The position numbers and the translations under genes are program-made. Below, in pieces: positions 6,833 to 63,800 of a DNA stretch of 64,000 nucleotides (position 1 is its first letter; every line of letters starts with the position of its first letter). Source of the stretch: Bdellovibrionales bacterium (GTDB taxonomy: Bacteria; Bdellovibrionota; Bdellovibrionia; Bdellovibrionales; UBA1609); assembly GCA_041690295.1 (NCBI GenBank), contig JAWLHR010000017.1:1-64000 (forward strand), read 5' to 3'. The notes beneath the pieces were generated by a model. It saw only the letters and a program-made list of their open reading frames with translations, had not been told where the DNA came from and did not search any database.

Positions 6833-8095
6833 TTGAGGGGGTTTTTAGTGGTCGCAGGTTCCGTGAGGATACTTATCGTTCTGGTGTCATTTTCTCTTGC
6901 CACAGTCGGTTGTACCGCCGCGAAGTTCACAACTAAAGATGCCGCTCTTTCTAAATCCGTCATGGATGCGGAAGGATCCATTTTTCAAGGGGATGACGCT
7001 GGTAACGGAATCCAGCAGGTCGATAACGGCAATGCCACGGGGAACCTGAATCAAGGCAATGATGATGACGATGACGCTAATGGTTCTCTAAACCAGCTCG
7101 ACGACCTGCTGAACGGCGGGGCCCGCGGACAGTTGAATCAACCCGACGGCACCAACGATGAAGTGGACATCCGCTTGATCTGTTCCGACAGCCGCTCAAA
7201 GGACAACATGAATTTCAAGCGCGCCCTCGCCACCGGCGGAACCATCGTTCTCGCGCTTGATGGAAAGATCTGTACGAACAACGTCAACGAAATCAAAGCC
7301 CTCGTTGAGAAAAAGAATATCACCATCGCGGACGCCCAACGGCTTTGCCCGGAATTGGTGCCGCCCATGGGTGAATGGGCCAGCGTTGAGATCATTATCA
7401 ACGGCGAGAGCAATCCCTCCCGCCGGGGCGTGATTGAACTTCTTTACGCGCGCAATGATGACACAAGCGTGCCCAGCGAAGCCGCGGACGAAAACTGTGA
7501 CAAGCGCAAATCGCCGCTCGTTATCAATATCGCCTCCGATGTTAACAACCCGAAACCCATCTCGCTGTCTTCACCCACTGACGGCGTGTTCTTCGACATT
7601 CTCGGCTCCGTCGGTAATTATGTTCCGGTTCGAATTTCATGGTTCACCAATACGGACTACCGCCTGCTCACTTTGCCCAATGAGGACGGCGACGTTCTTT
7701 CGATCGATGAGCTTTTCGGCGACAACACCCTTGGTCCAGATGGCAAATACGCCGACGACGGGTACGCGGCTTTGGCCAAGTATGATGGAAAATCAGCCGA
7801 TGGTGTGTTTCACATCGCCGAGCCGGACGGTTATATCACCCCGGCCGACGGCGTGTTCGAACATCTCCGCCTCTGGTTGGATGAAAACTTCAATGGCCGG
7901 GCCGAGCCGCACGAACTGGTCAGCCTGGCAAGCGTGGGAATCAGCTACATCGATCTGAATTACTCCACCGATTATGCCGAAGAGGATGTGTACGGGAACC
8001 AGACCAAAATGAAATCCGTGGTTGGTTATACGGACGGCACTTTGGATCTGATATTTGATTTGTGGTTTAATGTGAATCTTGGAGATACAAAATGA
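6833..8095 (+). CDS. Lipoprotein with C-terminal FrpC SPM/MIIA-like Ca-binding autoprocessing-type domain (Ser-Pro variant), paralog A
   Basis: Lipobox TVGC; Asp/Asn/Gly linker; SPLV...FFD...ELFGDNT...GYAALAKYD...LRLWLDEN.NG...ELVSL...GI..IDL.Y resembles the FrpC SPM; exact start uncertain (6833 or 6848). Confidence 0.75.
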   Translation: MRGFLVVAGSVRILIVLVSFSLATVGCTAAKFTTKDAALSKSVMDAEGSIFQGDDAGNGIQQVDNGNATGNLNQGNDDDDDANGSLNQLDDLLNGGARGQLNQPDGTNDEVDIRLICSDSRSKDNMNFKRALATGGTIVLALDGKICTNNVNEIKALVEKKNITIADAQRLCPELVPPMGEWASVEIIINGESNPSRRGVIELLYARNDDTSVPSEAADENCDKRKSPLVINIASDVNNPKPISLSSPTDGVFFDILGSVGNYVPVRISWFTNTDYRLLTLPNEDGDVLSIDELFGDNTLGPDGKYADDGYAALAKYDGKSADGVFHIAEPDGYITPADGVFEHLRLWLDENFNGRAEPHELVSLASVGISYIDLNYSTDYAEEDVYGNQTKMKSVVGYTDGTLDLIFDLWFNVNLGDTK

Positions 8096-8820
8096 AAAAA
8101 CCAATCAAGCTACTGGTGACATTGGTCGGGGCCATCGGGTTTGCACTGGCCTTTCAAAACTGCTCCGACGTGAACTTCGGCCAAAGCTCCAGCAGTCCTA
8201 ACCAATCCGCCAATGGCGGCGCGGGCGGCCCTGGTGGCGCGGGCGGAGATGCCGGCGGCGTTATCGGTCAAGATGGCGGCGGAGGTGGCGGTAACGGCGG
8301 CAATGGTGGTCCTGGCGACCCTAATAATCCGGGTGGCGGTGGTAACGGCGGCAATGGTCCCGGTGATCCCAACAATCCAGGCGGCGGTGGTAACGGCGGT
8401 ACCGGTCCGGTGAACAATCCTCCGGGAGGAACCACTCCTCCGGGCGGAACGGCTCCTCCGGGAACTCCCTTAGCTCCGGTCTCGATCATTCCACGGGTCG
8501 TGTTTATTGGACCGCCCTGTGTTCGCGGAACGAACTGCTTGGTGGCCTTTGAACTGGATCAACCCTACGCGAACCGGGTCGACTTTGACTGGCGCACGAA
8601 TGACACGATTTGGACAACACCCAGTACGCCGATTTACGGTAAACCGAATTATCACTATGTTCCGACCAGCGGACATATCACCTTCATGCCCGGCGAAATC
8701 CGTAAAGAGGTTTACGTGCAGAACATCAATCCCGACAACGTTTCCATTTTGATCGGGATTATCATGTCCAACTGTAATTACGGCGGTGCCGCGCACGGCT
8801 GTACACAGTTCTTTAGATAA
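8092..8820 (+). CDS. FQNC-type lipoprotein with Gly/Asn/Pro repeat linker and Calx-beta-like C-terminal domain
   Basis: LAFQNC lipobox; GGNGGNG(G)PGDPNNPGG repeats; VDFDWRTND...HYVPTSGHITFMPGEIRKEVYV Calx-beta-like pattern; ATGA overlap with the upstream gene. Confidence 0.7.
   Translation: MKKPIKLLVTLVGAIGFALAFQNCSDVNFGQSSSSPNQSANGGAGGPGGAGGDAGGVIGQDGGGGGGNGGNGGPGDPNNPGGGGNGGNGPGDPNNPGGGGNGGTGPVNNPPGGTTPPGGTAPPGTPLAPVSIIPRVVFIGPPCVRGTNCLVAFELDQPYANRVDFDWRTNDTIWTTPSTPIYGKPNYHYVPTSGHITFMPGEIRKEVYVQNINPDNVSILIGIIMSNCNYGGAAHGCTQFFR
8275..8470 (+). repeat. In-frame coding repeats (about 48-51 nt GGNGGNGPGDPNNPGG units, then PPGGT units)
   Basis: Visible in both DNA and protein. Confidence 0.75.
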
Positions 8821-8879: not shown

Positions 8880-10439
8880 TTAGTAACTCCGCACGCAGCG
8901 AACATATGCGGAGGTAGACTTGGCTCCGCCGAATGTTCCACCATTGGTAAAGGATTGCATCCGTGCGTTCGAGGAACTTTGCTCCGAAGATGACCAATAT
9001 TGCGCCGATCGGAATCCAGTGATCAGGGATTGCTTACCACCAAATGGAACGCAATTGCGAAATTCGTCAGGAAAGTTGGTATCGTGCGATGTGCCGCCGT
9101 CAGAGATACAGTATAAATACCCCAGCTCGGATTTGGACGGCAGATACCAATCCGTATACCCGCCGTAATTCATATTACTGCAATAATGAGCCGCTGAATC
9201 GTTGGAAATCGAACCATCGGCCACGATGATCGGCGTTTCATCATCCCCAAGTCGCGGGCTCGGTGAAGAGTCGTTCTGGATGTTGATCAGACCGGAAATG
9301 TCGGAGTTCCCTCCGCTGCTCCCTCGCCAACTTTTTTGCACGGAGTCTGGTCCTCCTGAACAAGTGGGAGTCGCACTATTCGTACATCCGCCGGGAGTGA
9401 CCATATAGCGGCGTCCTCGGTATGTACCGGCATAGATGGCTGTCGTTCCCGAGCACGTCTCGCCAATTTGCTTACCTGCGCATGGATCTGAACTTGTGGG
9501 CGCCGGGCCGAAATACTTGATGACGATTTGACCACCGCCGCCAGGACCTGAGACGTCACTGTTTTGGCTGCTATTAAGATTCGCGCCTGGACCGCCGGCG
9601 CCACCACCCGGAAATCCGCCGACTCCGCCGGACGCTCCAGGGCCACCACTTGCATTCGTATTGGCACCGCCGGCGCCGCCGCCACCGCCACCTTGCGCAT
9701 GGACTCCACCCATTGCACCCGCATCGGGCCACGTGGCATCAGCAAATCCACCACTTCCACCCGCGCCCGCACTGGGCGACGAACCGCCGTTCCGACCATT
9801 GTTATTCGTACTTGCAAGTCCATTCCCGCCGTTTCCAGAAGGAGATGCCGCGGCACCACCACTCCCACCGCCATAACTGTCGGCCGCTCCTCCGGAACCG
9901 CCGCTGAATTTCACTGTGCCCACACTCGAAGCGGCGGATCCACCAGAACCACCGTTATAGTTCCCGCTTAGACAAAAACCGCCGCCACCGCCCTTGGCTA
10001 ATAGGGTGGACGTGTTAACAAACCAAGTGTCACCACCCGCGTCGCCATTCGCATGCGAGTAAGAAAGTCCGCCCGCCCCGACGGAATAATTGATTGTTTG
10101 GCCTGGCGTGACCGCGAGGTTCTCGACTCTTGCATAGGCGCCACCACCACCGCCGCCACAGCTATATCCCTGATTCCTGCCACCAGCGCCACCGCCACCG
10201 CCCCATGCTTCCACGGATATCAATGTCGTCACACCACTTGGAACCTTCCATGACGAACCGGACGTGAGTGTGACCGTGTGCAAAGCCAGGGGCTGAGGAC
10301 GCATACGAGACATGAAAGCGATCCGAGCCTCGGCGCTCGGTTGATAAAATAACATCAAGAACGCGAAGGCCAGCAGCGTCGTTTGTCGTCGCACTGAACG
10401 AGTACGACTATGGGCATTGCTTCCAAACTTGGGCGCCAT
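8880..10439 (-). CDS. Secreted glycine-rich domain protein with C-terminal DUF1566/Lcl-like (C-type lectin fold) domain
   Basis: Signal-like N-terminus; SWKVPSGVTTLISVEAWGGGGG...GGGGQIVIKY phage-type Gly-rich domain; GGYTDWYLPSKSEL...YWSSSE...YVRCVR DUF1566 motifs. Confidence 0.75.
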   Translation of the reverse strand: MAPKFGSNAHSRTRSVRRQTTLLAFAFLMLFYQPSAEARIAFMSRMRPQPLALHTVTLTSGSSWKVPSGVTTLISVEAWGGGGGAGGRNQGYSCGGGGGGAYARVENLAVTPGQTINYSVGAGGLSYSHANGDAGGDTWFVNTSTLLAKGGGGGFCLSGNYNGGSGGSAASSVGTVKFSGGSGGAADSYGGGSGGAAASPSGNGGNGLASTNNNGRNGGSSPSAGAGGSGGFADATWPDAGAMGGVHAQGGGGGGAGGANTNASGGPGASGGVGGFPGGGAGGPGANLNSSQNSDVSGPGGGGQIVIKYFGPAPTSSDPCAGKQIGETCSGTTAIYAGTYRGRRYMVTPGGCTNSATPTCSGGPDSVQKSWRGSSGGNSDISGLINIQNDSSPSPRLGDDETPIIVADGSISNDSAAHYCSNMNYGGYTDWYLPSKSELGYLYCISDGGTSHDTNFPDEFRNCVPFGGKQSLITGFRSAQYWSSSEQSSSNARMQSFTNGGTFGGAKSTSAYVRCVRSY

Positions 10440-13400
10440 ACCAAGTACTGTCTCCGTTCATTTTGATGAATTGATAAATTGTTTTTTCTCCAGCACCAGT
10501 ACAGACATTTGGGGTTATGTTTTGATTCCAAAGGATGGAACCGCCGCCTGGTGCGACCCATGTCAACGTGCGCGAGCCGGTGCCGTCCTGAGTGATGACA
10601 ATCACAACCTGTGCCATTCCATTAGTGATTCCAGGGTCATTGGGTAAAGTGATCGTGGCATTTCCAGTTAGTGTCACTCTGTAGATGCTTCCATTGGTGA
10701 GCGCGCCGAGGCTCAACGATGTTCCGGAGTTCACACTGGCCTGCATTTTTTCCGCGAGAGAGTAGAACGCGCCGTTAACGCGCAGATTGCCGTTCACATC
10801 CAATCGCTCGCCCGGAGTGGTCGTTCCGATACCCACTGGACCACCATCCGGATTCAATGCCAGCGCCCGAGTCGACGTAAAATTCTCCGAGGACTCGATC
10901 CAACCGTAAGGAGGACTGGCCGTCGTGTTCACACCTAAGGTCAAACGTTTGTTGGAGTCTGATGAACCACGGATTTGCAGTTGACCGGTTTCATCATGGT
11001 ACGGACTGGGATTGGAATTTCCCGCAATGACCACTTGAAACGGAGAAGCTGGTGCGGTGGCAATACCAACACGTCCGGAATTATCAATTCGTATACCTTC
11101 ACTGCCCCCGTCATTACTCAGCCAGTTTCCATTCAACTGAATATTCGTCGTGGCCGTGTGATTTCCCAAATTATCCGCACCGCCACCAACCATGTCCTTC
11201 CAAATGTTGTTCTCGTACACTTCGAACTTATTGCTGGTCGTGTTGTAACGGATCATACCGTTCAAGCCGGTCGGGCGGTTGGCTTGTGTGTCGCGGGGAA
11301 CGAGCATGGCGCTACGAGAGCCGGTGGCAAAGACATCTAATATCACTCCGGAGTTCGGTGTTGCGGTGCCGATCGACATGGTTCCTGCATCGGTGATTCT
11401 GACCCGTTCAATGCCATCTGAATTGGCAATCACCAAATCCGGATTGTCACCCATCGCGCGGATCAGGCCCGCGGTATCGGTTGTTCCATTGGCCATGTAT
11501 CCCAAGGCCACGCCAGAAGAATTTCCGCCGTCACGATACGCGCCCAACAAGCTGTGAGTGCCGGCGGCCGCGCCATCCTCCATGTTAACTCTTGTCGAAC
11601 CTTTGAAGTACGTGGTCCCGCCCGTATTTTGAATATAGAGATCACTATTCGCGCCGTTGTTGCGCGCTAAAATTTCGTTGTCGTCGATCGTCAAGTTCAA
11701 TCCGGAGACATCACCAATGACCAGATTCCCGCCGGTGCCTAGTGAAGCATCTATATCTCCAGGTAAATACACCCGGCCGTCGTTATCAATTCGGAGACCT
11801 TCATTGCCGCCATCATTACTAAGGTAATTGCCGTTGAGTTTGATGTTCGCCGTGGCCGTATGATCACCCAGATTATCCGCGCCGCTGCCAACCATGTCGA
11901 CCCAAGCGCTGTTTTGATAGACTTCGAATTTATTCGAATCCGTATTGTAACGGATCATACCGTTCACACCACTCGGGCGGTTGGCTTGTGTGTCGCGGGG
12001 GATGATGATTGAACTCGTTGATCCAGTCGCATAGATGTCGAGGATTGATCCGGAATTCGGCGTTGCCGTTCCAATTCCGACGCGGCCTCCGGCCTTGATG
12101 ACCATTTGTCGTGTCGAATCGTTTTCAGAGAAGTAAATATCGCCACCCGTAACCCGGTTGATATTCAAACTCGTACCATCACTCAGGAAGGAAGCGTTCT
12201 CATAGGTGGGTGAATTATTGAAGTAAAACGCGGACCAAGTGGGATCCGAGACTTGGGCGCCGATCGAGATGTTAGGCCCAGAACCTCCCGAAGCGATAGT
12301 CAAACGACGATTCGCAGTTGAAGTTCCAATGGCCACATTGCCTGAGTTATCAACGCGGATCCCCTCATTACCACCATCATTGCTCAGCCAATTGTCATTG
12401 AGTTTAATGTTCGCCGTGGCCGTGTGATCACCAAGATTGTCCGCGCCGCTACTGACCATGTTGGTCCATTGTCCGTCTTCGTAAACTTCAAACTTCGCCA
12501 AAGACGTGTTGTAACGGATCATACCGTCAACCGCATTGGTTGGGCGGCTTGAGGTGTCCGCGCGGGGAACGAGAAGTGAACTGGTGTCCGATGTCGTGCC
12601 CCAAAGGTCAAGCAAGGCACCGGGAGTCACACTTGATGTTCCCAAAGCGAGGGTTCCGTTGGCGCCAAGTTGAGGAATCTTATTGGCGGTGATACCGACA
12701 TCAACGGAAATTGTCTTCTCGCTTCCCGCGCCGTCAATGATGATTCCCGTACCGGCGACAAGGTCGAGAGACGCATCATTCGCGGGTAACCAAGCACTGC
12801 CATTCCACTTGAGCACTTGTTGATTAGTCGCACCGGTTTGAGTAAGCGCTGTTGTCGGAATCGCAATCGTTTCTTCACTGGCCGCGGTTAAGCGACCTTG
12901 AGCATCGACCGTGAATTTAGCGACAGCCGTAGCGGAACCATACGACTGAGCGGTCACACCTGTGTCGTCTAGATCAATTGTGACAGCACCGGAAGTGCCG
13001 CCACCGGTAAGACCTGTACCGGCCGCGACTTCAGTGATCGTGCCTCCGCCGTTATCGTCATCGGCGCAAAGCCACGCGGAGCCATTCCATTTTAAGATTT
13101 GTTGATTGCTACAAGCCACGTTGTTCGGAGCATAAGTGAAGTACTTGCCAGCGGCTGAGCCAATATCACCCACATCCAAGGTCACAGCACCGGTTTTACC
13201 CGCAACTGAGGACACTGGAGCTGAAGGAACCGGGCGAGGTTCCCAAGCATTCGCTGATTGATTCCACATCAAAACTTCGGTGTCATTCGGAGCCGTCGAG
13301 GCAATGTCACGACCTTGGAGTTTGGTCGCATCGGTTGAGTCATTGTCGTCGGCCGGCAACCAGGCACTGCCATTCCACTTGAGCACTTGTTGATTAGTCG

Positions 13401-16400
13401 CACCGGTTTGAGTAAGCGCTGTTGTCGGAATGGCAATCGTTTCTTCACTGGCTGCGGTTAAACGACCTTGAGCATCCACCGTGAACTTCGCAACAGCCGT
13501 GGCGGAGCCGTACGACTGCGCGGTCACACCTGTGTCGTCTAGATCAATTGTGACAGCACCGGAAGTGCCGCCACCGGTAAGACCTGTGCCGGCTGCGACT
13601 TCAGTGATCGTACCACCGCCGTTATCGTCATCGGCGCAAAGCCAGGCGGAGCCATTCCACTTTAAGATTTGTTGATTGCTACAGGCCACGTTGTTCGGGG
13701 CATAAGTGAAGTACTTGCCAGCGGCTGAACCAATATCACTTACATCCAAGGTCACAGCGCCGGTTCGGCCTGCGACTGAAGTCACCGGAGCTGAAGGCAC
13801 TGGTCTTGGTTCCCAAGCATTCGCTGATTGATTCCACATTAAAACTTCGGTGTCGTTCGGAGCTGTTGAGGCAATGTCACGACCTTGGATTTTGGTCGCA
13901 TCAGTCGAATCATTATCGTCAGCGGGCAACCAAGCACTGCCATTCCATTTGAGCACTTGTTGATTAGTCGCACCGGTTTGCGTGATCGCTGTCGAGGGAA
14001 TGGAGATCGCCACCGACTCAGCATCAATCAATCGGCCTTGAGCATCGACTTCGAAAGTGGCCACTTCAGATGAAGAACCATAGGTGCCAGCCGTCACGGT
14101 TGTATCATCCAGATCAATTGTGACAGCACCGGAAGTGCCGCCACCAGTAAGTCCTGTACCCGCCGCCACTTCTGTAATATCGCCACCGGCATTATCGTCG
14201 TCGGCGCAAAGCCAGGCGGAGCCATTCCACTTCAATATTTGTTGATTGCCGCAAGCCACATTGTTCGGAGCGTAAGTGAAGTACTTTCCAGCGGCTGAAC
14301 CAATATCACCCACATCCAAAGTCACCGCACCGGTTCGGCCTGCAACGGAAGTGACCGGAGCTGAAGGAACCGGGCGAGGTTCCCAAGCATTCGATGATTG
14401 ATTCCACATCAAAACTTCAGTGTCATTCGGAGCCGTCGAGGCAATGTCACGACCTTGGAGTTTGGTCGCATCGGTTGAGTCATTGTCGTCAGCCGGCAAC
14501 CAGGCACTGCCATTCCACTTGAGCACTTGTTGATTAGTCGCACCGGTTTGAGTAAGCGCTGTTGTCGGAATGGCAATCGTTTCTTCACTGGCTGCGGTTA
14601 AACGACCTTGAGCATCCACCGTGAACTTCGCAACAGCCGTGGCGGAGCCGTACGACTGCGCTGTCACACCTGTATCGTCCAGGTCGACGGTCACAACGCC
14701 CGAAGTTCCACCACCAGAAAGTCCTGTTCCGGCGACCACTTCGGTAATGTCGCCGCCGGCATTATCGTCGTCGGCGCAAAGCCAGGCGGAGCCATTCCAC
14801 TTCAATATTTGTTGATTGCCGCAGGCCACGTTGTTCGGAGCATAAGTGAAATACTTGCCAGCGGCTGAGCCAATATCACCCACATCCAAGGTCACAGCGC
14901 CAGTCTTACCTGCGACTGATGACACCGGCGCTGACGGAACCGGTTGCGGCTCCCAAGCATTCGATGATTGATTCCACATTAAGACTTCGGTGTCGTTCGG
15001 AGCTGTTGAGGCAATGTCACGACCTTGAAGCTTGGTCGCATCGGTTGAGTCATTATCATCGGCGGGCAACCAGGCACTGCCATTCCACTTGAGCACTTGT
15101 TGATTAGTCGCACCGGTTTGAGTAAGCGCTGTTGTCGGAATGGCAATCGTTTCTTCACTGGCCGCAGTTAAACGACCTTGAGCATCTACGGTGAATTTCG
15201 CCACAGCCGTGGCGGAACCATAGGATTGTGCTGTAACACCTGTGTCGTCCAGGTCTACGGTCACAACGCCCGAAGTTCCACCACCAGAAAGTCCTGTTCC
15301 GGCGACCACTTCGGTGATCGTACCACCGCCGTTATCGTCATCGGCGCAAAGCCAGGCGGAGCCATTCCACTTTAAGATTTGTTGATTGCCGCAAGCCACG
15401 TTGTTCGGAGCGTAAGTGAAATACTTGCCAGCGGCTGAACCAATATCACCCACATCCAAAGTCACCGCACCGGTTTTTCCTGCAACTGATGTAACAGGAA
15501 AATTAATCGCCACGTCTTGAGCAAAGGTCACAACCCCTTGCGCATCCACACCGAACTGACCCACACTTGTGGTGCTTCCGTAAACTCCGGCGGTGACGCC
15601 AGATGCGCCCATCGCCGTGGGAACTGTCACACATTCCCAACCATCCGCGCCCCAACGAAGAATCTCGTTCAAGGCGCAGGTCTTAAATTTCAAAGTCTCA
15701 CCCGTCGAACTGTCGCTGATGACCAGACGATTTTTGCCCATACCAGCTTGGTCCACGGTGCGGGCACTGATCGCATTGTCCGCGATCTTTGGCTCAGTGA
15801 CCGCTTCATCATCAATCTTTGCCGTGGTCACGGCCTCATTGGCGATCGTGGGATTGGGATAAGTACCGGTTAAATCACCACCTGCGGCCCCACCGGCGTC
15901 AAAGCCCACGTAAGCCGAACCGTTCCACAAACGAACCGTGTTCAAATCCGTATTATAAAAAATCGATCCCGCATGGGCTGCGCCCAAGCCACCTTCTTGA
16001 GCCGTCGTGAATCGACCAAGGGTCAAGTAGCGCTGATTATCCATGGTGATATGGCCAGCTAACTCGATGTTGTTTCCGCCCATGGTGATCGGACCCTGCA
16101 TCGTACCGCCGGCGAGAGGAAGTTTGGTGTTATCGACCGCTGAAGGCACTCCAGTGGTCCACTTGTTATTGGCCGCATCCCAGATGAGCGTGTGGCCATC
16201 GTTCGTATTAGCGCCCACACCGGATAAATCGGCCGACTTATCACCCACATGGGAATCCACCCAACCTCGGTTCACCGCATCAGTCGCCGATGTGGGGCTT
16301 CCCACATTCGAGATCACTTGGCCGTTAAATGAATAAGGCGCGTTGAAGGTGTTATTCAGTAAGTTTTGTAATTTGGGATAATTGGTCGCCGAGAATACGT

Positions 16401-16965
16401 CTTCCACATTAGCTTGGTTCAGATCCGTTCCCGCATCGTCTTTGACCTGAATGAAATCCGAAGCGGATTTTCCTTGCAACGTATCGGCGTAGAGGGCGTA
16501 CGCGGAAGAAGTCAGGGGAACATTGGGTGTCAATGCGGTCATGCCGGAGCCTAAGTCGTAGGACACGCGAATCTTTCGCAACGATCCGCTGGCCAGAGTC
16601 ACACCAGCCGTGCAACCGGTAAAACCACCTGTCGCCACTCCGGAGTTTTCGAAAATTTTCCAACTCAGATCGTTCGGGCTGCCGGCATCCAGATGATTCT
16701 GGCGCGGATTGCCCTCACCAATGACCAAGGAGAATCCGCCCTTTGAGCCGGACAAATCCGCCGTGTGCGTCTCACTATAGAGAACACAGGTCTCGTTCTC
16801 ATCGAGAATTTCGAGTTTGAAATCAACGCTGTTCTGAATAATGGGGGCGCCGCTCGAGTTGTAGAGAACACCACTCACGTTCAGCTTAACCGGAGCGCTT
16901 TGCGCATGAACCACGAAAGACCCAATCAGGATCAGCGTATATAAAGTACCGGTGCAAACGTTCAA
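10408..16965 (-). CDS. Giant secreted phage-tail-fibre-like adhesin (Bdellovibrio MAT-like), 2185 aa
   Basis: Signal peptide; conserved N-domain ending SSAYALYADTLQG; QVLKWNGSAW, VTSVAGKTGAVTL and G(R/N)VGIGT fibre motifs; C-terminal TLTGNATIT...TQDGTGSRTLTW...WYG domain; no S74 chaperone motif seen. Confidence 0.85.
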   Translation of the reverse strand: MNVCTGTLYTLILIGSFVVHAQSAPVKLNVSGVLYNSSGAPIIQNSVDFKLEILDENETCVLYSETHTADLSGSKGGFSLVIGEGNPRQNHLDAGSPNDLSWKIFENSGVATGGFTGCTAGVTLASGSLRKIRVSYDLGSGMTALTPNVPLTSSAYALYADTLQGKSASDFIQVKDDAGTDLNQANVEDVFSATNYPKLQNLLNNTFNAPYSFNGQVISNVGSPTSATDAVNRGWVDSHVGDKSADLSGVGANTNDGHTLIWDAANNKWTTGVPSAVDNTKLPLAGGTMQGPITMGGNNIELAGHITMDNQRYLTLGRFTTAQEGGLGAAHAGSIFYNTDLNTVRLWNGSAYVGFDAGGAAGGDLTGTYPNPTIANEAVTTAKIDDEAVTEPKIADNAISARTVDQAGMGKNRLVISDSSTGETLKFKTCALNEILRWGADGWECVTVPTAMGASGVTAGVYGSTTSVGQFGVDAQGVVTFAQDVAINFPVTSVAGKTGAVTLDVGDIGSAAGKYFTYAPNNVACGNQQILKWNGSAWLCADDDNGGGTITEVVAGTGLSGGGTSGVVTVDLDDTGVTAQSYGSATAVAKFTVDAQGRLTAASEETIAIPTTALTQTGATNQQVLKWNGSAWLPADDNDSTDATKLQGRDIASTAPNDTEVLMWNQSSNAWEPQPVPSAPVSSVAGKTGAVTLDVGDIGSAAGKYFTYAPNNVACGNQQILKWNGSAWLCADDDNAGGDITEVVAGTGLSGGGTSGVVTVDLDDTGVTAQSYGSATAVAKFTVDAQGRLTAASEETIAIPTTALTQTGATNQQVLKWNGSAWLPADDNDSTDATKLQGRDIASTAPNDTEVLMWNQSSNAWEPRPVPSAPVTSVAGRTGAVTLDVGDIGSAAGKYFTYAPNNVACGNQQILKWNGSAWLCADDDNAGGDITEVAAGTGLTGGGTSGAVTIDLDDTTVTAGTYGSSSEVATFEVDAQGRLIDAESVAISIPSTAITQTGATNQQVLKWNGSAWLPADDNDSTDATKIQGRDIASTAPNDTEVLMWNQSANAWEPRPVPSAPVTSVAGRTGAVTLDVSDIGSAAGKYFTYAPNNVACSNQQILKWNGSAWLCADDDNGGGTITEVAAGTGLTGGGTSGAVTIDLDDTGVTAQSYGSATAVAKFTVDAQGRLTAASEETIAIPTTALTQTGATNQQVLKWNGSAWLPADDNDSTDATKLQGRDIASTAPNDTEVLMWNQSANAWEPRPVPSAPVSSVAGKTGAVTLDVGDIGSAAGKYFTYAPNNVACSNQQILKWNGSAWLCADDDNGGGTITEVAAGTGLTGGGTSGAVTIDLDDTGVTAQSYGSATAVAKFTVDAQGRLTAASEETIAIPTTALTQTGATNQQVLKWNGSAWLPANDASLDLVAGTGIIIDGAGSEKTISVDVGITANKIPQLGANGTLALGTSSVTPGALLDLWGTTSDTSSLLVPRADTSSRPTNAVDGMIRYNTSLAKFEVYEDGQWTNMVSSGADNLGDHTATANIKLNDNWLSNDGGNEGIRVDNSGNVAIGTSTANRRLTIASGGSGPNISIGAQVSDPTWSAFYFNNSPTYENASFLSDGTSLNINRVTGGDIYFSENDSTRQMVIKAGGRVGIGTATPNSGSILDIYATGSTSSIIIPRDTQANRPSGVNGMIRYNTDSNKFEVYQNSAWVDMVGSGADNLGDHTATANIKLNGNYLSNDGGNEGLRIDNDGRVYLPGDIDASLGTGGNLVIGDVSGLNLTIDDNEILARNNGANSDLYIQNTGGTTYFKGSTRVNMEDGAAAGTHSLLGAYRDGGNSSGVALGYMANGTTDTAGLIRAMGDNPDLVIANSDGIERVRITDAGTMSIGTATPNSGVILDVFATGSRSAMLVPRDTQANRPTGLNGMIRYNTTSNKFEVYENNIWKDMVGGGADNLGNHTATTNIQLNGNWLSNDGGSEGIRIDNSGRVGIATAPASPFQVVIAGNSNPSPYHDETGQLQIRGSSDSNKRLTLGVNTTASPPYGWIESSENFTSTRALALNPDGGPVGIGTTTPGERLDVNGNLRVNGAFYSLAEKMQASVNSGTSLSLGALTNGSIYRVTLTGNATITLPNDPGITNGMAQVVIVITQDGTGSRTLTWVAPGGGSILWNQNITPNVCTGAGEKTIYQFIKMNGDSTWYGAQVWKQCP
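11070..12600 (-). repeat. Three dispersed modules (PR.T..RP...GMIRYNT...KFEVY...W..MV..GADNLG.HTAT.NI.LN.N.LSNDGG.EG.R.DN.G.V) separated by unique spacers
   Basis: Seen three times in the translated protein. Confidence 0.85.
12781..15498 (-). repeat. 570-bp (190-aa) in-frame tandem repeat, about 4.8 copies
   Basis: GAGCACTTGTTGATTAGTCGCACCGGTTTG recurs at 12811, 13381, 13951, 14521 and 15091; units start at 15498, 14928, 14358, 13788 and 13218. Confidence 0.95.
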
Positions 16966-17463: not shown

Positions 17464-18849
17464 GTGAATTTCAATAATACGCTCCCGGTGATGCTCGCGA
17501 CTCTGGCACTTTCATTATCGGCTTGTTCTAAAACCACATTCTCCACGCAGAAGGCGGAAAAACTCAGTGGCACCAGCGTATTCGGCGATGAAGCGAATGG
17601 AAATATTCCGCAAGGTGATGACGCCAACGGAAACATCAATCAACCAAATGGCGGCGGTGATGCCTATGGCGGTATCGGTCAACCGAACGGTCCCGGTGGC
17701 CCCGCCAATGGAAACATCGGTCAGCCCAATGGTTCCGGCGGCCCCGCGAATGGTGGTCTCGTTCAACCCACGATCCCTGGAATGGGCGGTGGCACCGGTT
17801 CAGGAAACGGTAGCAGCAACGGTTCGAACATGCCCGGCGGTATGAATCCTTACATCCCGGGCTTGCCCGGAAATACCGGTTCAGCGCCTTTGATGGGCGA
17901 TACAAGCAAGCCAGCCTATTTAGTGACTCCAGGTCAATCCACCGAAAAAGTTTGGCTCTACTGCTCGGATGAAAATGTGAACATCCAAGGTCGTTCGAAC
18001 TTCAAAAAAGCGTACAACCTCAACGAACCGATTCAGCTCGCGGTCAATGGTTATCTTTGCTCCACCGATAAAGTCGCGATCCGTGCTCTTATCACGCAAG
18101 ACACTTTCTCGCTCGACCAACTTCGAGCGCTTTGTCCAAGCGTGGTGCCCAGCCACGGATTGGTCAGACCCGAGGTGTACGTCAACAATCGCACACTGAC
18201 TTACTATCAACCCAATTACTCCCGCCTTGAAGTGCACTGGGCGGCGAACAATAATCCCACCGCTGGCGACCAAAAAGACCAATTTTGCGATCGAGTGGAG
18301 TCTCCTCTTGTTGTTCATCTGACATCAAACGTGAATGACCCCAAACCCATCACGCTGACGGATAAAGCGAGAGGCATTTTCTTCGATCTGTTGGGTGCTT
18401 TGAACAACTATGTTCCCGTTCGAATCTCCTGGTTCACCAATGATGATTACGCCTTCATCACGCTCCCCGATCGTGACGGCGAAGTTAAAGGAATTGACCA
18501 ACTCTTCGGTAGCCGCACGCTGGGTCCTGATGGCCGATTCGCCGAAAATGGTTATGAGGCGCTGGCCAAGTATGACGACAACAACGACGGCTTCATCACC
18601 CGTGACGATCGCGTGTTCCACCGTCTCCGTCTCTGGACCGACTACAATAAAAACGGCCACTCGGAACCCGATGAGCTTCGCACTTTAAACTCCTACCGGA
18701 TTCAGTTCATCGATTTGAACTACTCCACGGATTACGCGGAAACCGACAACTGGGGTAACGAGACAAAAATGAAATCCGTGATCGGGTACGAAGACGGCTC
18801 GCTGGATCTGCTCTTCGATCTTTGGTTCGCGTACCGGCTGAGCTACTAG
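17464..18849 (+). CDS. Lipoprotein with C-terminal FrpC SPM/MIIA-like domain (Ser-Pro variant), paralog B
   Basis: GTG 17464 after GGAGG; lipobox LSAC; Gly/Asn/Pro linker; SPLV...FFD...QLFG..T...GYEALAKYDDNNDGFIT...LRLWTDYNKNG; clear paralog of 6833..8095. Confidence 0.75.
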   Translation: MNFNNTLPVMLATLALSLSACSKTTFSTQKAEKLSGTSVFGDEANGNIPQGDDANGNINQPNGGGDAYGGIGQPNGPGGPANGNIGQPNGSGGPANGGLVQPTIPGMGGGTGSGNGSSNGSNMPGGMNPYIPGLPGNTGSAPLMGDTSKPAYLVTPGQSTEKVWLYCSDENVNIQGRSNFKKAYNLNEPIQLAVNGYLCSTDKVAIRALITQDTFSLDQLRALCPSVVPSHGLVRPEVYVNNRTLTYYQPNYSRLEVHWAANNNPTAGDQKDQFCDRVESPLVVHLTSNVNDPKPITLTDKARGIFFDLLGALNNYVPVRISWFTNDDYAFITLPDRDGEVKGIDQLFGSRTLGPDGRFAENGYEALAKYDDNNDGFITRDDRVFHRLRLWTDYNKNGHSEPDELRTLNSYRIQFIDLNYSTDYAETDNWGNETKMKSVIGYEDGSLDLLFDLWFAYRLSY

Positions 18850-46752: not shown

Positions 46753-48297
46753 ATGAAATCAATTCGATCCACATTAGGCGCGATCATCGCGTTTTTCACC
46801 ATGTCTCAAGCGTTGGCGCAAACACCGGCGGTGCCGCTGACCCAACCGGTGCAGTGTCCCAGCATTGGCGACGAGTTCAATAAACTTTTGGGCCGTCTGG
46901 AATCCATCAAAACAAAAATCAAAAAAACCGCCAATTGTGAAAACGTCGATTTAACCGTGAAAAGCCTTGAGGACCTGCTCGTCAAGGATCGCGAGAAGTT
47001 TCTGGAAATCATTGAAATCGGCCGCACACAGCCTTTGAATGAAGAACAAACCAACCAAGTTCGTAAATACGCCGAAAACATCACTCTTAAAGTCACTTCG
47101 ATCTACGATCTTTTCACTCAAGCCAACAGCTGCTTTAACGACGGCGGATCCATCACTGATATTCAGCAACTTTCCGGATTCGTCAGCGAGGTTTCCCGCC
47201 TGGTGGCCGCCGTCAGTGGCCCGTGGGCGACACCCATTGCTTTGACCGGAACCGTGGTGGCCGGATTTTTGACCGGCATGGATAAGGCGCTCAAAGCCCG
47301 CGCCGGATTTGATTTCAGCACCCCGAGCGATTGGAAAAGCTATGTGCAAAACCTTTGCTCCTTCCACAACTACCGGGAGCAAATCGAACACCTTCTTGAT
47401 CCGGACAGGCGTATCCGCCAACTTTCCGACTTAAAAGCTCTTCTGAATGATCGGTTGAAACAAATGACCGGCGACTGCCCTGATTGCCGCCAGATTCAGG
47501 AGAACTTCAATTCCGAAATGCAGGTCACCGATCCCATGGTTCAAAGCGCCGACCGCAATCATGCGAAACCGCTCGGGACCTACACGCTTTATATGATGGG
47601 TCTGCGCGACTGGGCCGACTCCGAGATCAAGCGCGTCCAGTCGGAAGCTAAATCCTTTTGGGCTGACGTGACCGGCCGCCACTTGCTCTTTACCGCGCGC
47701 GATGAGCTGGAGCGATTCCTGGTGGATCGTGAAAGCCCGCGGTTTTTGAATCACCAAACAAAAGTCACACTTGAATCGTTCAAACAGCTCAATCTCATGG
47801 CTCATGCCGAGGGCCGTAACCTTTACTATCAAATTCGCGCTTTGAACCCTCAGGCCGTTGGCGAGGTGGGATACTTTCCGCAGTATCTTGATTACTTCAA
47901 CGTGCTAGTTCTTCAACCCATCCGCTGGGAACTCTTGCCTAAGTCAGCGGACATTACGGACCTGCAATACGCTTGGACGCACTATCGTGACCGCAATGTG
48001 AACCGGATCCGCGCGACGGAAAGTTCGGTCTTCGTCAGCCAGGCATTTTGCGAGTTCTTCCGTCACGCGGGTTATTACACCTCGGCGATTCGCAGCGCCT
48101 GCACGTCGACGGCTTTGAGAAACCAAGCCAGCCAGATCGCCGACTTGGGTGAACAGTTGTTGGCGGCGGGTGTCGTGGGTCAGCCTTCGCCGATTGATCC
48201 GAATGTGTTCAATCCCGGAGCGGGTTCCGACGAGAAAATCCCCCGAACCAAGCTGGAAAGCCTCAACCTTTTAGTTGAGCAAATGACAGCGCGATAA
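46753..48297 (+). CDS. Secreted alpha-helical hypothetical protein
   Basis: Signal peptide ending QALA; SD GGGGGA; paired Cys; one internal hydrophobic segment. Confidence 0.75.
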   Translation: MKSIRSTLGAIIAFFTMSQALAQTPAVPLTQPVQCPSIGDEFNKLLGRLESIKTKIKKTANCENVDLTVKSLEDLLVKDREKFLEIIEIGRTQPLNEEQTNQVRKYAENITLKVTSIYDLFTQANSCFNDGGSITDIQQLSGFVSEVSRLVAAVSGPWATPIALTGTVVAGFLTGMDKALKARAGFDFSTPSDWKSYVQNLCSFHNYREQIEHLLDPDRRIRQLSDLKALLNDRLKQMTGDCPDCRQIQENFNSEMQVTDPMVQSADRNHAKPLGTYTLYMMGLRDWADSEIKRVQSEAKSFWADVTGRHLLFTARDELERFLVDRESPRFLNHQTKVTLESFKQLNLMAHAEGRNLYYQIRALNPQAVGEVGYFPQYLDYFNVLVLQPIRWELLPKSADITDLQYAWTHYRDRNVNRIRATESSVFVSQAFCEFFRHAGYYTSAIRSACTSTALRNQASQIADLGEQLLAAGVVGQPSPIDPNVFNPGAGSDEKIPRTKLESLNLLVEQMTAR

Positions 48298-62636: not shown

Positions 62637-63800
62637 TTAAACGTACGATCCTTTTTTGATCTTTTCGACGATCACTTTTTCAAGGATCTGAGGATCTTTG
62701 GGATCCACGCTGAAGACCGCCTGTTGTTCGCAACGTTTCTTTTCTTTGACCAGCCAGCGGAGAATGTCAGCGAGAGGCTTGTTCTTTTTGTCCTGGAAAA
62801 AGGGATCGTTCTCCAAAGCATCCTTGGCTTTTTTAAGCGAACGCGCTTCCGCCGGATCCCGGTCATTCACCGAGTAGCAGAACAAGCCGTACTTCTTCAC
62901 ATCTTCGGGCAACACACCCAAAAACCGAACTTGGGGCGCGGAGAAATCGGAATTCCGAATCAGTGACGCCGCCGATCCGGCCTTGAGAGTTCGGAAAATG
63001 TTCTGAAGCGTGTAAGCATCCAAGTCTCCGTAGAAATACATCGGGATCTTCAACTGATCCTGAATGGTTTTACACCAGCCCCGCACGCCGTTGGACGGAA
63101 CCCCCTGCGCACCGATGATGATGCAGTTATGTCGCGTGTGCATGCCGTTGGCGACCAGAGTGTTGGCCGTACCTTCCGACTCAACGATCAGGCAGAAGTC
63201 GATTTTCCCTTTTTTGGGCTTCAGTCTGAACGTTTGTGGTTTGTTTTTCGGTTGGAATGGCGTGGTTCCCAAACTGCCCAGATCAACCACCGCGGTCGAA
63301 CCGTCGGAGAGCGTTTCAGTAACGATCAAATTCTTTGAGTACGTTTGACCGCCCCGGTCGTTAGCGAAGCAATTCATTTCTTCGCGATAAACTTCGAGCA
63401 TATCGCAAATGAAATCGATGATCGCGTCGCTTTCCGGTTGGTCCTCGAAATCCAGAGGCTTTAAATGGGTGTTCCCCTTCACCAAACCTTTGGAAATATA
63501 GTAAAGTTCACGCTTCGTATTGACGGCGCCGCTGCGCAAGTTTCCAAGTAAAATCTCCAACATGAAAATCGTCCGCGCCATCTTTTGCACCGACGAAACA
63601 TTCAACTCGGTCTTAACGACTTTTTCCCCCGGAGTCAGAAAACCGACCTTGGGATTATAAAAAGAGTTGTCGAGCGAACACTTCACGGCTTCAAGCACTG
63701 GCCGCTTCGCCTTTTCAAGATCCGACAGCATTTGTTCGCAAAGGACCTTGGCTTCCTTGAGGATGTCTTTGTTCAATACGCGAATTTGAGCTTTAGCCAT
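62637..63800 (-). CDS. top6A: DNA topoisomerase VI subunit A (Spo11-like)
   Basis: NTKRELYY (WHD catalytic Tyr), IVESEG and YGDLDAY TOPRIM motifs; C-terminal KKRCEQQA. Confidence 0.85.
   Translation of the reverse strand: MAKAQIRVLNKDILKEAKVLCEQMLSDLEKAKRPVLEAVKCSLDNSFYNPKVGFLTPGEKVVKTELNVSSVQKMARTIFMLEILLGNLRSGAVNTKRELYYISKGLVKGNTHLKPLDFEDQPESDAIIDFICDMLEVYREEMNCFANDRGGQTYSKNLIVTETLSDGSTAVVDLGSLGTTPFQPKNKPQTFRLKPKKGKIDFCLIVESEGTANTLVANGMHTRHNCIIIGAQGVPSNGVRGWCKTIQDQLKIPMYFYGDLDAYTLQNIFRTLKAGSAASLIRNSDFSAPQVRFLGVLPEDVKKYGLFCYSVNDRDPAEARSLKKAKDALENDPFFQDKKNKPLADILRWLVKEKKRCEQQAVFSVDPKDPQILEKVIVEKIKKGSYV

Follow-up and report, generated by a model that had tools for sequence, protein, structure and literature searches.

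The self-processing module (SPM) found in FrpC and FrpA from Neisseria meningitidis and in ApxIVA from Actinobacillus pleuropneumoniae (structures 6sjw and 6sjx; PF26745, an assignment precomputed on the matches) folds upon binding Ca2+ and cleaves itself at an Asp-Pro bond. In this reaction a five-membered ring is closed between the Asp, Asp414 in FrpC, and its own carbonyl, and an aspartic anhydride results. The module has been described as confined to RTX proteins (PMC7078468). The MIIA domain (DUF1521) of NopE1 and VIC_001052 resembles it in Ca2+-induced folding and Asp-Pro self-cleavage, and is cut at a GDPH motif (PMC6506597). Here we analyse two paralogous lipoprotein genes in a stretch of 64,000 nucleotides, called the window below, from a Bdellovibrionales bacterium (contig JAWLHR010000017.1 of assembly GCA_041690295.1, positions 1 to 64,000). 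Gene 1 (P0005, 6848..8095, forward strand) has a GTG start and encodes 415 residues, and gene 2 (P0034, 17464..18849, forward strand) encodes 461. Both proteins share one anatomy: a lipobox, a low-complexity linker, a four-Cys domain and a C-terminal SPM in which Ser stands in front of the Pro.

FrpC-type modules in two lipoproteins

By sequence and predicted structure, both lipoproteins end in a true FrpC-type SPM. A phmmer search of the PDB matched only the two FrpC SPM chains (6sjw and 6sjx, E 8.7e-13 and 9.4e-13, domain residues 48-191), and because the matches are restricted to these chains the likeness is not due to chance. An AlphaFold model of P0005, built on an alignment of 81 sequences (mean predicted local distance difference test score, pLDDT, 85; predicted template modelling score, pTM, 0.72; about 80 low-confidence residues), matched the same two chains in Foldseek (E 7.8e-12, TM 0.80). 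With VIA, model residues 223-414 were placed on residues 1-175 of the chain (Z 19.6, root-mean-square deviation 2.3 over 164 residues), the next match having Z 3.2. Sequence and fold thus bear out the FrpC homology that a first-pass annotation of this DNA had proposed, and for which it had suggested the AlphaFold and Foldseek comparison. The motifs that it pointed to are present (ELFGDNTLGPDGKYADDGYAALAKYD, LRLWLDENFNG and DLIFDLWF), as are the Ser in place of Asp and the replaced DLDGDG loop.

In the VIA superposition Pro223 lies on FrpC Pro415, which puts Ser222 (TCG, 7511..7513, codon checked), the proposed nucleophile, at the Asp414 position. The Pro223 codon begins at 7514, and the module runs from Pro223 to Lys415 (7514..8092, forward strand). 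The gene 2 SPM (18301..18846, forward strand) is 59% identical and begins with Ser280 (TCT, 18301) and Pro281 (18304). The site reads KSPL in gene 1 and ESPL in gene 2, with 194 and 182 residues, respectively, from the Ser to the stop. Because Ser222 and Ser280 occupy the place of the Asp, the aspartic anhydride is impossible here, and these are not Asp-anhydride clip-and-link proteins although they belong to the same structural family.

The surroundings of the site are largely those of FrpC, taking residue roles as described in PMC7078468. The port residues W265, L289, G291, G305 and D404 of P0005 correspond to FrpC W451, L475, G477, G491 and D579, and the Trp pair W451/W519 is kept as W265 and W343. 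Port and Trp pair are near-invariant across 209 homologues (the clade set, made up of Bdellovibrionota-clade proteins), and the D579 equivalent is invariant (209/209). D292 of P0005 is the counterpart of D478; gene 2 keeps the D579 equivalent and has Ser at the D478 position. Instead of four Ca2+-binding loops we found only loops 2 and 3 with their ligands kept in P0005. Unlike in FrpC, loop 1 is degenerate in the clade (first Asp lost, Glu often Gln) and (A/T)S(D/N)VN(N/D)PKPI stands in place of the DLDGDG loop. A further difference is that the module sits at the extreme C-terminus of a Sec-exported protein with an N-terminal lipobox, without RTX repeats (no PF00353 match) or a type I secretion tail.

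The kinship with the NopE1 MIIA domain that the first-pass annotation also saw gained no support: the lipoproteins lack the GDPH motif, and no DUF1521 match was found in either protein, in the genome or among the 25 families listed for 41 SPMs, in searches where the control genomes were silent as well and no positive control was detected. Neither lipoprotein has a curated match in Pfam or NCBIfam, the Pfam set used being without PF26745.

The Ser-Pro reading is not an assembly error, since a contig of another public run, possibly related to the source sample, spans window positions 7346-7624 with zero differences. The genome carries five SPM-like copies, three besides genes 1 and 2, all with the form Cys-x(4-5)-Ser-Pro-Leu. 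The fifth, a distant paralogue (G000:C15:53803-58804) with a Sec signal and the site CDGAFYSPL, lies downstream of an 839-residue pilin-like gene. The named homologues are from Bdellovibrionales and a MAT fibre gene lies between genes 1 and 2, which marks the host as Bdellovibrio-like. Promoter and terminator scans of the locus stayed at chance level, no RNA holders of the locus were listed, and a phage collection of 50,697 records gave a single partial match.

A relative exists in Bdellovibrio bacteriovorus HD100, where the 'iron-regulated protein FrpA' (CAE79034) is likewise a lipoprotein whose C-terminus forms an SPM-like domain; it keeps the port motif and the D579 equivalent, as genes 1 and 2 do, and has Thr-Pro at the site. 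It belongs to a distant paralogous family with a different N-terminal region, and is named by similarity only, and our literature search found no study of it; the name shows that the SPM homology was noticed long ago. CAE79034 is equated here with Bd1113/Q6MNW7 through the shared name. In supplement rows of PMC12546842, Bd1113 is represented by 32 unique peptides and its level stays flat through predation, which speaks against this member having a role induced by predation.

Ser, Thr and Cys before the proline across the family

Tabulating the residue before Pro, a check proposed in the first-pass annotation, gave Ser in 187 members of the clade set, Asp in 17, Thr in four and Glu in one, with the Pro itself kept in 208/209. 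Twelve hand-picked plasmid matches had 5 Ser and 7 Asp. Two wider samples were drawn. Sample 1 was taken from GTDB genomes (2/64 parts) with the downstream pattern P-L-x-L-D-L-x-G-x-G; of its 127 matches, 107 were kept by the clade profile (E<1e-5) and read D50, S31, T16, C6, F2, P1 and A1. Among the 20 dropped rows, 7 had D/S/T and 13 some other residue, one of these being an Asn in a sequence that the profile did not match. Sample 2 came from metagenomes by a mid-domain pattern blind to the N-terminal site. Of its 126 matches, 15 were set aside because they had too little sequence upstream or were not matched by the profile. The other 111 read D47, S39, T14, C8, N1 and two unread, and the profile alignment showed that the N call is really D, one C call really S and one unread row Ser-Ser. 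A phylum survey found matches in 73/301 genomes, and 50 loci (30 returned by the search and 20 hand-chosen) read S36, T7 and D7. Three apparent exceptions turned out to be pattern mis-picks: L200 and L321, which had read as Asn, have D and S, and L306, which had read as Leu, has D. Ser/Thr/Cys-Pro makes up about half of the sampled SPMs, across many phyla, and the form is neither rare nor predator-specific as the first-pass annotation had implied. The module matches 14,271 clusters at 50% identity.

Copies without an intact site provide a comparison. The best 120 of 2,786 full-length matches hold 166 SPM copies, 16 of them without a readable Pro motif. Those with the port Phe-Gly motif have S75, D17, C2, T1 and P1 before the Pro; those without it have A21, P14, S9, L5, K2 and single G, Q and R, and are mostly cadherin/VCBS adhesin repeats. 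Pooling 544 copies, from sets that overlap and with a port motif picked after sample 1 had been seen and used to select sample 2, we found D, S, T or C in 476/478 port-bearing copies against 17/66 of those without the motif, and in 194/196 against 13/34 after clustering at 60% identity. From this contrast, the fold tolerates Ala, Pro, Leu or Lys before the Pro and the intact site does not. The 366 non-Asp port-bearing copies comprise S323, T29, C12 and two others; Asn, Ala and Gly never precede the Pro in the 478. In two ordinary Asx/Ser/Thr columns of the same domain Asn does occur (27/249 and 104/209), against none in the pre-Pro column. Cys stands before the Pro in about 6% of samples 1 and 2; the background frequency is 0.5% in the linker upstream and, for positions preceding Pro-(Leu/Ile/Val) in this genome, 0.8%. 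Asp, Ser, Thr and Cys all act as side-chain nucleophiles in protein self-cleavage, and the near-limitation of the site to them across the family lends indirect support to the Ser-based acyl shift raised in the first-pass annotation.

The four residues have replaced one another repeatedly. Going from Asp to Ser, Thr or Cys takes two base changes via Asn, Gly, Ala or Tyr, and these intermediates were not seen before the Pro; the Ser codons at this place are drawn from both Ser codon families. A FastTree phylogeny of 254 domains (174 from the samples, 68 of the clade, including 45 random Ser members, and 12 plasmid), built with the pre-Pro residue excluded, implies at least 22 changes between Asp and Ser/Thr/Cys and 42 among the four residues, compared with 68-79 or more for shuffled labels. 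More robust than the tree, 6/58 multi-member clusters at 60% identity mix Asp with Ser/Thr/Cys. The swap also occurs behind one cargo: P0309, with Ser, and P0305, with Asp, share theirs and have 51% identity over 463 residues, and behind a GH108 lysozyme the site is Ser-Pro in P0318 but Asp-Pro in P0331. Among 25 chosen Ser-type RTX proteins, lipase, lysozyme, LysM and DUF6973 domains lie ahead of the module.

Several groups within the family merit separate mention. P0269-P0352 are type I-secreted RTX proteins with a hypervariable N-terminal cargo (lipase, GH108 lysozyme, LysM, DUF6973) before a Ser-Pro SPM, and by their sequences look like N-terminal polymorphic antibacterial effectors. One such N-terminal RTX domain class is described as an antibacterial effector homologue (PMC6759196), a cargo that would fit an SPM acting as a release device. 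In some RTX proteins (P0241, P0242, P0246) an Asp module is combined with a Ser or Cys one, and the cadherin/VCBS adhesins P0233-P0268 have two to three tandem SPM-like copies that lack port motif and nucleophile and are apparently structural repeats. In a large clade (L142, L143, L147, L148, L152, L163-L168, L201, L238, L252, L265 and some 30 other metagenome loci) the C-terminal Ser/Thr/Cys-Pro SPM, which has an RWAWDVF-like end, follows immediately on a Cys-rich stretch, and S, T and C are freely interchanged; these proteins could be self-released or self-cyclised disulfide-rich peptides. A well-supported Asp-Pro clade of 30 members (L140, L149, L155, L172, L179-L181, L199, L210, L211 and others) consists of non-RTX proteins with a shortened C-terminal SPM without the loop 3 Ca2+ ligands. 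One clade member (L291, G241:C1) appears split into two frames inside the SPM, by a frameshift or an assembly error.

A candidate acyl shift and its alternatives

The reading we favour, with a probability of roughly one half given the sequences and models, is that the lipoproteins self-cleave on Ca2+ folding by an N-to-O acyl shift at Lys221-Ser222 and not through an aspartic anhydride. By analogy with FrpC, Ca2+ binding after export would fold the module and put strain on the backbone where the chain enters it from the N-terminal side. D404 (FrpC D579) and D292 (D478) would hold Ca2+ beside the site, D404 being the likeliest Ca2+ ligand or base. The Ser222 hydroxyl would attack the preceding carbonyl via a five-membered ring, and the bond broken would be Lys221-Ser222, one residue upstream of the FrpC Asp-Pro bond. 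What would remain is a serine ester of the lipid-anchored, disulfide-closed N-terminal domain, situated four residues beyond the last Cys of that domain. This ester could be hydrolysed ('clip'), freeing or unmasking the domain, or transferred to an amine or hydroxyl ('link'), and the same chemistry would apply to the Ser/Thr/Cys half of the whole SPM family.

We favour a Ca2+-driven shift at this bond because of ring geometry and metal Lewis-acid routes. For Ser, Thr and Cys a five-membered ring is possible only with the preceding carbonyl (general chemistry; PMC13062082), and these two routes, cleavage at Asp-X and at X-Ser, are the ones that metal Lewis acids promote (PMC10131212). There is precedent in Ser/Thr/Cys cis-autoproteolysis, for which the SEA domain requires strain and no base (PMC13062082). 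The chemistry proposed here would be shared with SEA, GAIN/GPS, Nup98, Ntn hydrolases, inteins and Hedgehog, in which side-chain attack on the preceding carbonyl gives an ester that is hydrolysed or transferred, and the nucleophile trio is that of the non-Asp SPMs. No SEA, GAIN, Hint or Ntn fold was listed at Z>=2 for the P0005 model, whose sole strong match is the FrpC SPM. We know of no cis-autoproteolytic domain that swaps with an Asp-anhydride form.

Several points weigh against the acyl shift. Cleavage, ester and adduct of the Ser/Thr/Cys forms are predictions only. The strained bond described for FrpC is 414-415, not 413-414 (PMC7078468), and the D414A mutation abolishes FrpC cleavage (PMC7846742). 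The Pro is still invariant though it would have ceased to be the leaving group. Unlike the cis-autoproteolytic domains, the SPM has no conserved His base near the site, position 227 being His in 74/209. One Ca2+ loop is replaced and another degenerate in the clade, and gene 2 carries the Ser at the D478 position. The port-less copies are largely a few related repeat adhesins and the port motif is post hoc, so this control is less independent than its counts suggest and p-values overstate it. Support in the FastTree phylogeny is modest, with 100/251 inner branches open. D579 and a following Trp accompany Ser/Thr/Cys in 33/33 and Asp in 13/33 raw cases, and independent pairs bring this to a median p of 0.5; covariation of Ser/Thr/Cys with D579, Trp+2, D478 or H490 was not significant in the few independent pairs. 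As to the trigger, a lipoprotein would already be exposed to Ca2+ in the periplasm, so prey contact need not be what sets the reaction off.

Of the alternatives, the one that survives best is a non-cleaving, Ca2+-folded surface domain, which we regard as possible, if on the unlikely side. Ser, Thr and Cys would then only form a hydrogen-bonded turn (Asx/ST-Pro) or fill the narrow port; the Asp forms would cut, and the others would be switched-off modules that act as heads, rigid, resistant to proteases or adhesive. Turns are classically capped by D, S and T, and Asn might be excluded because Asn-Pro self-cleaves, as in FlhB-type proteins. The D414A result makes Asp essential for the known chemistry (PMC7846742), the whole-protein model (pTM 0.72, about 80 low-confidence residues) is compatible with two domains packed as a unit, and the 32 unique peptides and flat level of Bd1113 through the predatory cycle (PMC12546842) fit as well. 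However, a turn or size role predicts Asn, Gly and Ala, none of which is found in the 478 port-bearing copies, and Cys, a poor hydrogen-bond acceptor, is enriched before the Pro. Port-less copies match the fold with Ala or Pro at the site, and the same enzyme cargo is found with Asp or Ser, which would be odd if only one of them released it.

Cleavage at the FrpC-type bond itself, here Ser-Pro, is improbable in our estimation. Water positioned by Ser, Thr or Cys would attack the twisted, Ca2+-polarised amide, giving release without cross-linking. This would account for a Pro kept in 208/209 clade members and for the retained port and D478/D579 Ca2+ site, which twist the bond in FrpC, and in SEA strain alone gave residual cleavage without the hydroxyl (PMC13062082). 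Against it, D414A FrpC stays uncut, so strain alone is insufficient there (PMC7846742), and water positioning does not obviously admit Cys while excluding Asn. A variant through a four-membered lactone is less plausible, as closure of such a ring is unfavourable.

Upstream of the module, gene 1 has a variable alpha/beta domain of about 118 residues (7157..7510) with C112, C142, C167 and C217, all four invariant in the 81/81 aligned homologues, which probably form two disulfides. Modelled alone, it has a confident predicted fold (pLDDT 95); the fold search gave a best Z of 2.7, Foldseek nothing at E<=0.001 and the ESM Atlas no usable match, and this absence of a clear structural match does not show a new fold. 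The gene 2 counterpart (17947..18300) matches the domain profile at E 1e-26. The last Cys, Cys217 (7496..7498, codon checked; 18286 in gene 2), stands at -5 from the Ser, and as the fourth of four conserved Cys in an exported protein it is most likely a disulfide partner. Its participation in the chemistry through a thioester relay, suggested by its presence in 202/209 clade members, is very improbable, since 116 of the 161 clade proteins (of 209) that have a lipobox-like start by a pattern set in this analysis have exactly four more Cys ahead of the module, this one included, which points to two disulfides, and since it is also kept in Asp-type clade members and mostly missing from canonical Ser-Pro SPMs (any Cys within the ten preceding residues in 2/31).

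The N-terminal parts complete the anatomy. The signal peptide of gene 1 (6848..6913) ends at Cys22 of TVGC, a Cys found in 79/81 aligned homologues, and that of gene 2 has LSAC with Cys21 at 17524 (codon checked); we take both to be lipoboxes from the familiar motif pattern. A few clade members (P0053, P0062) have a pilin-like start instead. The motif C-x4-F-x2-K-x3-L-x2-S-V-F follows in gene 1 (6914..6976; F 71/81, K 67/81, L 60/81, V 64/81) and at window positions 17527-17590 in gene 2, and possibly has a role in sorting or anchoring. Its core, F-x2-K-x3-L-x2-SVF, is common to the SPM lipoproteins and a neighbouring non-SPM lipoprotein of a relative (L317:7354-8250), and the motif after the lipid Cys is a possible sorting or surface-export signal. 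Next comes the Gly/Asn/Asp-rich flexible linker of gene 1 (6977..7156), residues 43-96 having pLDDT mostly around 50 or below.

Genomic neighbourhood and meaning for the family

The gene 1 stop is overlapped by a co-directional gene for a lipoprotein with the motif FQNC and a Gly-rich linker (8092..8820, forward strand). In a same-genus genome (L317, 50% identity over 115 residues) a counterpart of its C-terminal half likewise lies next to the paralogues. Between the two paralogues, on the reverse strand, lie an Lcl/Gly-rich protein and a 2185-residue MAT fibre gene (8880..16965; NF053851, E 2e-31; PF07603). The first-pass annotation had suggested that the lipoproteins might attach to this fibre. 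Such a partnership is not conserved: a MAT fibre gene (N-terminal match) lies within about 10 kb in 2/20 related loci, and in L317 synteny extends over the Vut_1 gene, two paralogues, the lipoprotein gene and feoB, without a fibre gene separating the paralogues. Within the fibre repeats (window 8880-16965), joints in related runs skip or repeat 470-1,740 bases, which suggests repeat-number variation or other fibre copies.

Elsewhere in the window, positions 62637-63800 encode a topoisomerase VI subunit A-like protein (PF21180, PF04406), an enzyme uncommon in bacteria, and a 514-residue open reading frame without a Pfam match (46753-48297) lies in a histidine-utilisation region.

SPM activity has so far been reported for a few Asp-Pro proteins only, and in the account of PMC12538545 only close homologues were tested. 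We found no account of Ser/Thr/Cys-Pro SPMs in the literature searched, though alignments or supplements of earlier work may show such variants. The Ser-Pro form of the lipoproteins is a variant of a known module, and its hint of a second chemistry is real and testable. The module now also turns up at the C-terminus of lipoproteins, as their head. In about half of the sampled copies the anhydride is impossible, but a nucleophile is retained. If the Ser/Thr/Cys forms do not cut, half of the annotated SPMs would be inactive. If they do, one fold would support two self-cleavage chemistries on adjacent bonds, for which we found no precedent in the literature searched.

A broader picture, which we regard as doubtful, is that the SPM is a two-chemistry self-activation fold, Asp giving an anhydride, and the equally frequent Ser, Thr or Cys forms giving, at the bond one residue upstream, an ester or thioester triggered by Ca2+. 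In the lipoproteins of Bdellovibrionota the ester would transfer the lipid-anchored, variable, disulfide-bonded domain covalently to amines of prey or of the cell's own envelope, as a covalent grappling hook, and the RTX forms would release variable N-terminal enzyme cargoes. If the Ser/Thr/Cys forms cut, this would explain what thousands of 'calcium-binding' proteins with a variable N-terminal lipase or lysozyme cargo are for. It would also provide a Ca2+-triggered ester/thioester tool that complements NeissLock, the Cys forms yielding thioesters, and, for predators, a candidate device for covalent attachment or shedding.

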